A stretch of 64,000 bases of DNA from Escherichia coli. GTDB lineage: Bacteria > Pseudomonadota > Gammaproteobacteria > Enterobacterales > Enterobacteriaceae. The position numbers and the translations under genes were made by a program. The stretch lies in the NCBI RefSeq assembly GCF_050320075.1, contig NZ_CP190018.1. One strand, 5' to 3'. The notes beneath the pieces were generated by a model. That model was given only the letters and a program-made list of their open reading frames with translations, ran no database searches and had not been told where the DNA came from. This document shows positions 37,713 through 56,201 of the stretch, piece after piece. Each line of letters starts with the position of its first letter. Within the stretch, counting starts at the first letter, position 1.

Positions 37713-37795
37713 TTTAAGCTGATGGCCACCGCGCTTTTTATTGACCATTTTGCACGCAAACTGGAAAACCTGGCGTCGTCATCTATTCTTAAAGG

Positions 37796-37898
37796 GCAAG
37801 GCAACTAAGCCTGCATTAATGCCAACTTTTAGCGCACGGCTCTCTCCCAAGAGCCATTTCCCTGGACCGAATACAGGAATCGTGTTCGGTCTCTTTTT
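37796..37898 (+). ncRNA. sdsR: small RNA SdsR (RyeB); the antisense sRNA RyeA (SraC) is expected to overlap on the - strand
   Basis: GCAAGGCAACTAAGCCTGCATTAATGCCAACTTTTAGCGCACGGCTCTCTCCCAAGAGCC...CGAATACAGGAATCGTGTTCGGTCTCTTTTT matches the recalled SdsR sequence, including its terminator hairpin and U-tail; located between yebY and pphA as expected. Confidence 0.7.
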
Positions 37899-38032
37899 AT
37901 CTGTTAAAAGCCAGAAGCATTCCCTTCGCTGACTTTATAGTCAACCATAACACACACTCTACTGTCTGAGTCCAGCGTTTTTTAACATTCTTGTTAAGAT
38001 TATGTGATCTTTAGCGCGGGAGGAAAATATTG

Positions 38033-52741: not shown

Positions 52742-53410
52742 TCCTTCCTCAATCTTGAGTAACCCCGTCGTTGAAGGGTTACTCAATTCATCCTGATTAT
52801 ACGCACTGTCATGGTGCAACTGCTTCAAATTAAAACTCTGGTCTGACTTCAAATAATTATCATATTATTTATTTGCGTAACGGGATATCAGAAAAAGATA
52901 TTTAGCCCATTAATTTATTAGGATGTTTACATCGGATTTGTGATTAAGCGTGGTATTATTTATTAGCGAAACGTTTCTCTCTTGATTTTTTTGCGCATTC
53001 ATCAATTTTTCTTATTTTAAATTTACAATACCTTTGGCGATTGACTTCTCTTTGGGGTGATCGATAGCCGTTAACTGACTGTTTTATGAGAAAAATTGAT
53101 ATAACTTTTTATTCATTGCATAGCAGAAAATGTGATATTGCACGCACTATGTAATAACTTCTCCCACTGGCCTGGAACAACTGAACTTATTGAACTATGT
53201 TAGAAAATACGTCAGTTTAAGTATCTGCCTGAACTGGCAAGGTTAAGCACAATGATATATCGGCGCGTATTCCGTTGCATAAGTGTGCAAAAAAAGTGGA
53301 AGACGTATCGAGATTTGTGCGTCTGATCGAGACATGTTTAAAAATGGCTTGCCATAATTAACGTTGTATGTGATAACAGATTTCGGGTTAAACGAGGTAC
53401 AGTTCTGTTT

Positions 53411-53554
53411 ATGTGTGGCATTTTCAGTAAAGAAGTCCTGAGTAAACACGTTGACGTTGAATACCGCTTCTCTGCCGAGCCTTATATTGGTGCCTCATGC
53501 AGTAATGTGTCAGTTTTATCTATGTTATGCCTGCGGGCGAAGAAAACAATCTAA
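53411..53554 (+). CDS. yobF: small protein YobF (47 aa)
   Basis: [47 protein letters not shown], 13 bp upstream of cspC; too short for the ORF track. Confidence 0.75.
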
Positions 53555-53566
53555 GGAATTTTTCAA

Positions 53567-53776
53567 ATGGCAAAGATTAAAGGTCAGGTTAAGTGGTTCA
53601 ACGAGTCTAAAGGTTTTGGCTTCATTACTCCGGCTGATGGCAGCAAAGACGTGTTCGTACACTTCTCTGCAATCCAGGGTAATGGTTTCAAAACTCTGGC
53701 TGAAGGTCAGAACGTTGAGTTCGAAATTCAGGACGGTCAGAAAGGTCCGGCAGCTGTTAACGTAACAGCTATCTGA
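53567..53776 (+). CDS. cspC: cold-shock-family protein CspC
   Basis: [37 protein letters not shown]. Confidence 0.95.
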
Positions 53777-53822
53777 TCGAATCCACTGATCTGAAGTGTG
53801 AATACGCTTCAATCTCGCTATA

Positions 53823-53850
53823 AAGCCTCGTCGAATGCGAGGCTTTTTAC
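53823..53850 (+). terminator. rho-independent terminator after cspC
   Basis: AAAGCCTCG-TCGAATG-CGAGGCTTTTT. Confidence 0.6.
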
Positions 53851-53941
53851 TTTGCTTTATCTTCGCTCCAGTCGTTCGGATATTTGCCCGCCGCGTGATT
53901 CGCGTTACACTTGCGGCCTTTAGTATCCTGCCGGAGTTGTC

Positions 53942-54751
53942 ATGTCGTTTTCCTGTCCACTTTGCCATCAGCCTCTTTCGCGTGAAAAAAACAGCTATAT
54001 CTGTCCCCAGCGACATCAGTTTGATATGGCGAAAGAAGGGTATGTCAATCTGCTGCCCGTTCAGCATAAACGGTCTCGTGATCCGGGCGACAGCGCGGAA
54101 ATGATGCAAGCACGCCGCGCATTCTTAGATGCCGGACATTATCAGCCGCTGCGTGATGCAATTGTCGCTCAACTGCGGGAACGGCTTGATGAAAAGGCCA
54201 CAGCGGTGCTGGATATTGGCTGTGGTGAAGGGTATTACACACACGCATTTGCCGATGCGTTGCCCGAAATCACCACGTTTGGCCTGGATGTCTCGAAGGT
54301 AGCGATAAAAGCGGCGGCGAAACGATATCCGCAGGTCACTTTTTGTGTTGCTTCCAGCCACCGTTTGCCGTTTTCCGATACCAGTATGGACGCCATAATA
54401 CGTATTTACGCGCCGTGTAAAGCAGAAGAATTAGCGCGAGTAGTGAAGCCTGGCGGTTGGGTCATTACTGCCACGCCGGGACCGCGACATTTGATGGAGC
54501 TGAAGGGGCTGATTTACAATGAAGTACATCTTCATGCACCTCATGCAGAACAACTGGAAGGTTTTACATTACAGCAGAGTGCTGAGTTGTGTTATCCGAT
54601 GCGTCTTCGCGGTGATGAAGCCGTCGCATTATTGCAGATGACGCCGTTTGCCTGGCGTGCGAAGCCAGAAGTCTGGCAAACACTGGCAGCAAAAGAAGTG
54701 TTCGACTGCCAGACGGACTTTAATATTCACCTCTGGCAGCGTTCTTATTAA
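53942..54751 (+). CDS. rlmA: 23S rRNA m1G745 methyltransferase
   Basis: N-terminal zinc-binding Cys motif (CPLCHQPL...YICPQRH) and SAM-binding motif [11 protein letters not shown]. Confidence 0.9.
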
Positions 54752-55314
54752 CCGTGGAAGTGCGTCCAGAGGATCTGGACGCCGATGCCGATCAGCACCA
54801 GCCCGCCGAGAATTTCCGCTTTTTTCCCAATAATTGAGCCGATAAAGCGACCAACCATCATCCCTAATGTCGACATAATCAAGGTTGCACAACCAATGGC
54901 CAATGCGGTCGCGATAATGTTGACCTGAAGGAAAGCAAGACCAACACCCACAGCCATGGCATCCAGGCTGGTGGCAATCGCGGTGGTTACCAGTAGCCAG
55001 AAACCGTGTCGACGGCGCGGCTCTTCATCTTCATCATCTGCGCCACGAAAACCCTCAATAATCATTCGCCCGCCGAGGAATATCAGCAGCACAAACGCAA
55101 TCCAGTGGTTCCATTCAAGAACAAACCGGCTGGCTAACATGCCCATTCCCCAGCCGATCAGCGGCGTCAGGGTTTCGACGGCACCAAAAATAAGGCCGGT
55201 TCGCAACGCTTCAGAAAATTTCGGTTTATGGAGGGTGGCACCTTTACCGATTGATGCAGCAAATGCATCCATCGACATACCAAACGCAAGAAGAACAGTA
55301 GCAGTGATATTCAT
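54748..55314 (-). CDS. mntP: manganese efflux pump MntP
   Basis: [25 protein letters not shown]; 188 aa after trimming. Confidence 0.9.
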
Positions 55315-55329
55315 GACAACGTCCTGACC

Positions 55330-55550
55330 GGGGTATCCATAAAACACATCATCGCCCCCAGCAAACATGCATACATGAACAACAAGCCGCGATGGTTTTC
55401 GCGTTCATGCAGGCATAGCGATTGATGTGCATATGGTCTCGCCTGACTGAAAGTGTTCAGTCCGTACGTGCCACGTTTTGCAACGAGTATGTTGACACGT
55501 ACATTTCCGGAATCTGGAAATCGGCTACTCCCCAAATGAGGGCGCAACCT
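55330..55550 (-). ncRNA. yybP-ykoY-type manganese riboswitch in the mntP leader; boundaries approximate
   Basis: The long mntP 5' leader contains the conserved GGGGAGUAG element (plus-strand CTACTCCCC at 55525-55533). Confidence 0.5.
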
Positions 55551-55685
55551 TAACATATTTTGAGAATATAAAACAACTGTTGGAATATATTATTTCATTG
55601 CTTTATTGATAACGATTTTCATTTAGATTTATATATCAATGAAACGTTAAAATAAATAACAAATAAGGGAAGAGGTAATATAGCC

Positions 55686-55737
55686 TTAGCTATGTCTGAT
55701 TATTAAAAATACACTAAACATAGCTTTGGCTAAATTC
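55686..55737. promoter_or_regulatory. MntR-box-like inverted repeat upstream of mntP
   Basis: AGCTATGT (55688-55695) and ACATAGCT (55718-55725) form an inverted repeat; the AAACATAGC half-site resembles the recalled MntR operator. Confidence 0.4.
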
Positions 55738-55742
55738 ATAAC

Positions 55743-56201
55743 TTATTGAGTTGAAACGAGAAGCTTATAAATTTTTTCCAGATCGTCGATATTTCGAACG
55801 CGGATTAACAGCCGACGCTGTTCTAATTGCATCACCAACACGCCATCTTCCGACAAGTTCATCGCTTTGATTCGGCTATATTCAATCCAGACATTGGCGA
55901 AGAAAAAACCTTTTTGTTTAAAGATGATCTTCGGAACGCGGATCCAGAATATATAAAAACCCATCAGAGCCAGTGCACTTAATAACCATGTTGTTATTAG
56001 CGCGCCATGATTCGTGACGTTGTTATAGATAAGAATGACAATCAATCCGACGAAGATAACGCTATCGATGCGACCACGCCGGAGCAAAGGAATTGCCAGC
56101 AGAGTGGGGCCGTTACGGCGGGGCATGATGAACTGATCGTAGATCGCGAAGGCCAGGAGTGCGGCGATGAAAAGAATCAGTACCAGGTCCGTGATTGTCA
56201 T
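55743..56201 (-). CDS. yobD: inner-membrane protein YobD
   Basis: ORF-track ORF trimmed to [18 protein letters not shown], giving 152 aa. Confidence 0.75.

Follow-up and report, generated by a model that had tools for sequence, protein, structure and literature searches.

The intergenic region between yobD and mntP in this Escherichia coli chromosome is the known native regulatory region of the manganese exporter gene mntP, that is, the K-12 system itself and no mere relative of it. We explain the region as a whole by layered control of mntP, exerted on transcription, through a riboswitch leader and through Rho, and assign this reading a probability of about 95%. The initial annotation had proposed that transcriptional and riboswitch control act on the same exporter, and both are documented (PMC11647493, PMC8632737, PMC12153347).

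According to this reading, H-NS would silence the mntP promoter within an AT-rich tract. At high Mn2+, Mn-loaded MntR dimers would bind two 18-bp operators, centred some 147 and 187 bp ahead of the start site, and, jointly with Mn-Fur at a Fur-like block (approximately -63 to -88), relieve the silencing. The first ~110 nt of the 225-nt leader would then fold into a four-way-junction yybP-ykoY aptamer, in which Mn2+ held between the loops L1 (GGGGAGUAG) and L3 (ACAUACU) is expected to stabilise helix P1.1. Without Mn2+, nt 104-110, which form the 3′ strand of P1.1, would be drawn into a 17-bp switch helix with nt 185-203, leaving the GGGG of L1 free to pair with CCCC (nt 207-210) beside the ribosome-binding site; the resulting fold would be translationally inactive. 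The long untranslated leader also permits Rho-dependent premature termination, partly suppressed by the active riboswitch.

The identity of the locus was established computationally. The window, by which we mean the whole 64-kb stretch analysed, derives from the E. coli chromosome, and its positions 55315-55742 coincide exactly with the 428-bp gap between yobD and mntP. Both genes are read from the minus strand, where the order is manY, manZ, yobD (55743-56201, stop codon at 55743-55745), the intergenic region and mntP (ATG at 55314-55312, stop at 54748), while rlmA lies on the plus strand, convergent with mntP. Positions 55290-55800 are 100% identical to E. coli CFSAN061763, from whose RefSeq annotation the gene names were taken, and at least 80% of this interval is found in 5,416 of 5,426 complete E. 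coli genomes. The coding sequence is as follows.

54748-55314, minus strand: mntP, 188 aa, Mn2+ exporter (open reading frame list and RefSeq WP_001296134.1).

An in-frame ATG at 55368 would lengthen the mntP reading frame by 18 codons into the leader (54748-55368); the RefSeq start is the ATG at 55314, with an AGGA Shine-Dalgarno sequence 7 nt upstream.

Between the yobD stop and the mntP start, 435 of 440 bases are identical to K-12 MG1655, whose mntP (yebN) is the same locus (Waters 2011; Dambach 2015; PDB 4Y1M). Aptamer, switch helix, both MntR boxes, Fur-like block and promoter block are all shared. The five differences are single-base changes, none of them in a paired or core aptamer position: the spacer of the proximal MntR box reads TAAG here against TTAG in K-12 (55684 region), and one change each falls in the Fur-like block, the P4 loop (C against U), the platform hairpin and the gap between Shine-Dalgarno sequence and ATG.

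The core motif of the yybP-ykoY riboswitch, which the initial annotation had placed on the mntP strand, is indeed present there: GGGGAGTAG occurs once in 64 kb, at 55525-55533 on the minus strand. Since 0.14 such occurrences are expected by chance per window, the motif alone is weak evidence. A search of 55200-55800 in E-value mode with the Rfam model RF00080 (Manganese, yybP-ykoY) returned a minus-strand match at 55445-55541 with 41.9 bits and E = 6e-10, which together with covariation places the aptamer on the mntP strand. The curated gathering score of the model is 45 bits. When all 64 kb were scanned with Rfam 15 under its default gathering thresholds, no RF00080 call appeared, the only matches being SraC/RyeA, SdsR/RyeB and a cspA-type one. 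The initial annotation had offered RF00080 as its check and the lack of a minus-strand hit as its refutation: the hit exists in E-value mode and is missing at the default threshold. Such a test is fragile, and read literally it would wrongly refute a crystallised riboswitch. By gathering score the leader falls outside the family (41.9 against 45 bits), this score being an annotation threshold and not a biological property. RefSeq likewise carries no riboswitch feature here, either in the 100%-identical CFSAN061763 record or in K-12 MG1655.

Two of the other calls of the default scan belong to the known overlapping antisense small-RNA pair at 37758-37902: SraC/RyeA on the minus strand, with 175 bits, and SdsR/RyeB on the plus strand, with 114 bits. 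The Rfam cspA thermoregulator model (RF01766) matches 53391-53851 on the plus strand with 137.7 bits, covering cspC (coding sequence 53567-53776) and its leader; this is a paralogue-type match, and the same model also matched beside mntP in other genera (loci L050 and L060).

Orthologous loci settle the family assignment. Eighty Enterobacteriaceae mntP loci were retrieved, and 76 of them carry GGGGAGTAG exactly once, 164-223 nt upstream of mntP. RF00080 matches the same position in all 20 of 20 diverse orthologous leaders (35.5-57 bits), nine above the cut-off and eleven below it (35.5-44.3 bits). Because every one of these leaders matches at the same place, the assignment is robust and the low score is a property of the model. 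Immediately followed by mntP in the same orientation, the element occupies the 5′ leader of a Mn2+ efflux gene. Mn2+ binding and raised expression have been reported for the K-12 sequence (PMC12153347, PMC11647493, PMC9603457), and the K-12 aptamer has been crystallised (PDB 4Y1M, per PMC12153347); the K-12 sequence is a founding, crystallised member of the RF00080 family.

For the structure of the leader we infer a transcription start at 55539 and count nucleotides from it, with helix names from PMC12153347. This +1 brings the published landmarks into register: A11 falls on the adenosine of L1 and A48 on the nucleotide that opens L3 (PMC12153347), and the aptamer ends near nt 110, which supports a 225-nt leader. 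Its upstream part contains the following features.

55539, minus strand: putative transcription start (+1), giving the 225-nt leader
55430-55538, minus strand: yybP-ykoY Mn2+ aptamer, nt 2-110, from the RF00080 match, covariation and K-12 identity
P1.1, nt 2-8 with nt 104-110
P1.2, nt 15-17 with nt 97-99
P2, nt 19-24 with nt 32-37
P3.1, nt 38-47 with nt 67-76
P3.2, nt 55-58 with nt 63-66, closed by a GCAA loop
P4, nt 78-84 with nt 89-95
55533-55525, minus strand: L1, GGGGAGUAG
55492-55486, minus strand: L3, ACAUACU (after GUCA)

A four-way junction with P1.1-P1.2-P2 stacked in one leg and P3.1-P3.2-P4 in the other was written from the sequence and then scored on 71 distinct Enterobacteriaceae leaders. 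Pairing reached 94.4% over the 38 modelled pairs, 18 of which show changes on both sides; none of 500 shuffles attained any of the five measures, and sliding the 3′ partners by 1-3 columns lowered pairing to 26-48%. The metal-site loops L1 and L3 are invariant or nearly so across the same leaders. These results bear directly on the proposal that the leader is no genuine manganese riboswitch, with GGGGAGUAG matching by chance and the sub-threshold score as the sign of it. The shortfall of 41.9 bits against 45 and the 0.14 expected occurrences of a single 9-mer speak for this proposal, to which we give next to no probability; it is already refuted by the strong covariation in all aptamer helices, by matches in 20 of 20 orthologues, 9 of them past the cut-off, by the E-value of 6e-10, and by near-identity to the crystallised K-12 aptamer (4Y1M per PMC12153347), from which this one is separated solely by the P4-loop base (C against U).

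Downstream of the aptamer the leader carries the elements of the switch.

55418-55436, minus strand: 5′ strand of the switch (OFF-state) helix, nt 104-122, from the minimum-free-energy (MFE) fold; nt 104-110 are shared with P1.1
55337-55355, minus strand: 3′ strand of the switch helix, nt 185-203, from the MFE fold and covariation
55367-55416, minus strand: platform hairpin, nt 124-173, from an inverted repeat and the fold, lineage-specific
55327-55362, minus strand: helix T, nt 178-184 (55362-55356) with nt 207-213 (55333-55327), 7 bp, from covariation
55322-55325, minus strand: Shine-Dalgarno AGGA, nt 215-218, read from the sequence

The unconstrained MFE fold of the full leader (-84.2 kcal/mol) contains the switch helix; enforcing the aptamer gives -79.0 kcal/mol, a cost of about 5 kcal/mol. 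The MFE fold retains P1.2, P2, P3 and P4, replaces P1.1 by pairing of nt 104-122 with nt 185-203, so that the 3′ strand of P1.1 finds its alternative partner in the expression platform, and pairs G7-G10 with C207-C210. Pairing in the switch helix amounts to 97.4% across 77 leaders, and 9 of its 17 pairs change in a compensatory way; no shuffle out of 500 reached this, and slid registers gave 19-46%. P1.1 and the switch helix are both conserved with compensation, and therefore both of these mutually exclusive conformations are under selection, which is the signature of a riboswitch. In cotranscriptional probing without Mn, invasion of P1.1 and L1 occurred when the transcript had reached about 205 nt (PMC12153347), and the 3′ strand of the switch helix is consistent with this 'riboswitching point'. 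The platform hairpin, described as the single platform helix (PMC12153347), is present in Escherichia, Citrobacter and Klebsiella, while many genera, Enterobacter, Kosakonia and Lelliottia among them, have nothing in its alignment columns; since it is missing there, it is dispensable for the core switch. The only terminator-like call of the region sits in the E. coli platform hairpin (55403-55388, CGCGAAAACCATCGCG then GCTTGTTGTT).

Helix T is 99.3% paired, and two of its pairs are compensatory in one clade, the Cedecea/Buttiauxella-like one, where ACUGGGG/CCCCGGU becomes GUUGGGG/CCCCAAC. It stops one nucleotide (C214) short of the Shine-Dalgarno sequence and crosses the switch helix, and because of this crossing it would belong to the other state; it may bear on gating of the ribosome-binding site. 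In the 77 species the Shine-Dalgarno G at nt 217 is invariant and the adjacent positions nearly so. Thermodynamic modelling of the leader did not clearly open the Shine-Dalgarno sequence when the aptamer was enforced, and for this reason we make no claim on the route by which the ribosome-binding site would be occluded. The riboswitch might instead serve mainly to shield the leader from Rho-dependent termination, ribosome access being secondary. Rho-dependent termination occurs within the leader and the first part of the mntP coding sequence and is suppressed in part by Mn (PMC11647493); published probing detected no Mn-dependent structural change at the ribosome-binding site (PMC12153347), and our modelling, with no clean opening of the Shine-Dalgarno sequence, agrees. 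We nevertheless consider this emphasis on Rho rather unlikely, if deserving of real weight, given that mntP is described as a translational riboswitch from reporter fusions (PMC12153347) and that the conserved CCCC/GGGG and helix T directly adjoin the Shine-Dalgarno sequence. The two routes are in any case coupled and not exclusive, since Rho loads on untranslated RNA.

The second E. coli member of the family, alx, is like mntP a translational Mn2+ riboswitch before a Mn exporter (PMC12153347). It lacks P2 and forms a three-way junction, whereas the mntP leader has P2, as covariation confirms, and forms a four-way junction; alx further differs in its L3, an intrinsic terminator and a response to alkaline pH. 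In the transcriptional yybP-ykoY riboswitches of Firmicutes (L. lactis yoaB, B. subtilis yybP and ykoY) the platform is an intrinsic terminator, in contrast to the platform of mntP, with its 17-bp long-range switch helix near the ribosome-binding site and Rho-dependent termination.

Upstream of the leader lie the candidate elements of transcriptional control.

55541-55577, minus strand: core promoter block, nearly invariant in 77 species
55576-55571, minus strand: -35-like TTGTTT, followed by an 18-nt spacer and a putative extended -10 (TGT-TAAGGT, 55555-55547), placed from the start-site position
55602-55627: Fur-box-like block (-63 to -88), 14/19 match to GATAATGATAATCATTATC, at least 90% conserved in 77 species
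55555-55742: AT-rich upstream region, 72-82% A+T, candidate H-NS target

A sigma-70 consensus scan did not call the putative promoter block, and its two matches were set aside as being at chance level (2 found, 2.4 expected). Five further sites in the window match as well as the Fur-like block (14/19), so that its match is not significant alone; the block was retained because it is highly conserved and because Fur binding at the mntP promoter is reported in PMC8632737 and PMC11647493, and the reported Fur site would correspond to 55602-55627. The AT-rich region is a likely H-NS target, and the mntP upstream region is listed as a 'promoter island' (PMC3661553). H-NS repression of mntP is relieved by MntR and Fur, as summarised in PMC8632737, and the AT-rich tract, the Fur-like block and the promoter block fit such relief of silencing by MntR and Mn-Fur. 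A TTAACG at 55650-55655 (minus strand), between the proximal MntR box and the Fur-like block, is invariant in 77 species.

The initial annotation had also described an MntR-like inverted repeat further upstream. Operators of the MntR type are present, but as two 18-bp operators and not as one site with a 22-nt gap; the motif it had noticed joins the two inner half-sites of two full operators. The 64 kb contain a single copy of that motif, AGCTATGT-N22-ACATAGCT, at 55688-55725, where 100 shuffles gave an expectation of 0; it extends to 19-nt arms (55677-55695 and 55718-55736) that are 84% complementary.

55718-55735: distal MntR operator, 18-bp palindrome, mntP strand ATTTAGC-CAAA-GCTATGT, centred at about -187.5
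55678-55695: proximal MntR operator, mntP strand ACATAGC-TAAG-GCTATAT, centred at about -147.5
55677-55736: the two operators together, a long inverted repeat with 19-nt arms around a 22-nt gap

The distal operator lies 8 nt after the yobD stop (plus strand ACATAGC-TTTG-GCTAAAT) and has two mismatches to the mntH operator, while the proximal one (plus strand ATATAGC-CTTA-GCTATGT) has one. The K-12 mntH operator reads ACATAGC-AAAG-GCTATGT and that of mntS ATATAGC-CTGT-GCTATAT, and both boxes conform to the palindrome A(C/T)ATAGC-N4-GCTAT(G/A)T. Searching the 64 kb for ACATAGC-N4-GCTATGT with up to two mismatches gave exactly two matches against 0.18 expected. Both operators are found in 70 of 77 Enterobacteriaceae species, in the pattern of a protein site: the cores ATAGC/GCTAT are invariant or nearly so, whereas the spacers are free, with 29-33 distinct versions (29 among 70 species for the proximal box). 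Their centres keep to 143.5-148.5 and 185.5-190.5 bp upstream of the start-site equivalent, in contrast to the distance from aptamer to ATG, which varies by 60 nt over the same species. According to PMC11275975, which cites Waters 2011, MntR has two sites in front of mntP, separated by more than 20 bp and lying some 170 bp from the promoter. Induction of mntP is MntR-dependent, and a strain without both mntR and the riboswitch fails to induce it (PMC11647493). These observations support the boxes as probable MntR operators, binding being taken second-hand from the literature.

The arrangement differs from that of other MntR targets. In B. subtilis, Mn-loaded MntR of the DtxR family likewise activates efflux genes, mneP and mneS, through several 18-bp sites (PMC11275975); there, four adjacent weak sites reach the -35 and the dimers touch (PMC11275975), whereas mntP has two sites, ~147 and ~187 bp upstream, with 22 bp between them and 40-45 bp between their centres. 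Such a layout implies that mntP is activated in another way, by relief of H-NS silencing. The mntH and mntS operators share with the mntP boxes the half-site A(C/T)ATAGC and the 4-nt spacer; they overlap promoters and repress, while the mntP boxes lie far upstream and activate.

We also found that the two operators co-vary as mirror images. Two pairing models were compared, using both operators of 69 species aligned without gaps. Pairing the distal with the proximal operator left 83.9% of cells paired (shuffled 78.4 ± 0.6, reached by 0 of 500 shuffles), with 97 cells changed on both sides (shuffled 51.6 ± 4.8) and a covariation score of 0.147 (0.018-0.059 in slid registers). Pairing each operator with itself gave 76.3% (shuffled 78.0), 21 cells changed on both sides (shuffled 32.6 ± 6.1) and a score of 0.054. 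Because only the inter-operator model beats shuffling, the non-palindromic positions mirror each other between operators and not within them, and the palindrome of the single operator was rejected as the source of complementarity at variable positions. The positions concerned are the 4-nt spacers and position 2/17, for example ATCG/CGAT in Enterobacter and CTGA/TCAG in Citrobacter. Thinning to 37 clades, the sole control for kinship, keeps the signal (3.67 of 6 variable pairs complementary against 2.57 expected), and the complementarity does not extend outside the 18-bp boxes.

One reading of this pattern, which we put forward tentatively and on balance doubt, is that the operators are arms of one evolutionarily maintained dyad of ~60 bp and not independent sites. 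A functional origin of the co-variation would suggest that long-range relief of silencing needs a higher-order MntR-DNA complex of two-fold symmetry, or else a cruciform or hairpin; the pattern also bears on how MntR activates from ~150-190 bp upstream. Templated (quasi-palindrome) correction between the arms is the parsimonious alternative; it would produce exactly the observed mirror pattern and needs no function. In the papers examined, which cite the original MntR work second-hand, mirror-image co-variation of the MntR boxes is not mentioned.

The inverted repeat at 55677-55736 might also act as a nucleic-acid hairpin, as a yobD terminator or 3′ stabiliser, instead of or besides holding MntR sites. 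It begins 8 nt past the stop codon of yobD, a gene found upstream in the same orientation in 76 loci; as RNA the repeat folds with -21.5 kcal/mol (z = -4.17), and the stretch from yobD to the mntP start has no other terminator-like site; the arm co-variation, with 83.9% against 78.4% paired and 97 against 51.6 doubly changed cells, 0 of 500 shuffles and persistence in 37 clades, points the same way. The stem, however, is AU-rich, and its tail ACCUCUUCCCUU has no U-run, where an intrinsic terminator has a GC-rich stem and a U-tract; no terminator was called at 55670-55742. If selection acted on a sense-RNA stem, G.U wobbles should exceed A.C mismatches, yet the sense strand shows 55 A.C mismatches and 20 G.U wobbles. 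The arms match the mntH and mntS operators with invariant half-sites, their complementarity stops at the edges of the 18-bp boxes, and Klebsiella and Raoultella keep both boxes without spacer complementarity. We thus regard a hairpin role as very improbable, the sense-strand RNA form being disfavoured by the A.C excess, the lack of a U-tract and the confinement of complementarity to the boxes, and retain MntR operators as the preferred reading of the repeat.

The control system of mntP is already known, and its confirmation adds no new biology. The practical point is that both the curated threshold of Rfam 15 and RefSeq annotation miss an experimentally proven riboswitch, and a missing RF00080 call in enterobacterial genomes is accordingly not evidence of absence. 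The locus offers a textbook case of a metal exporter under three levels of control, by a transcription factor that counteracts H-NS, by a riboswitch and by Rho.
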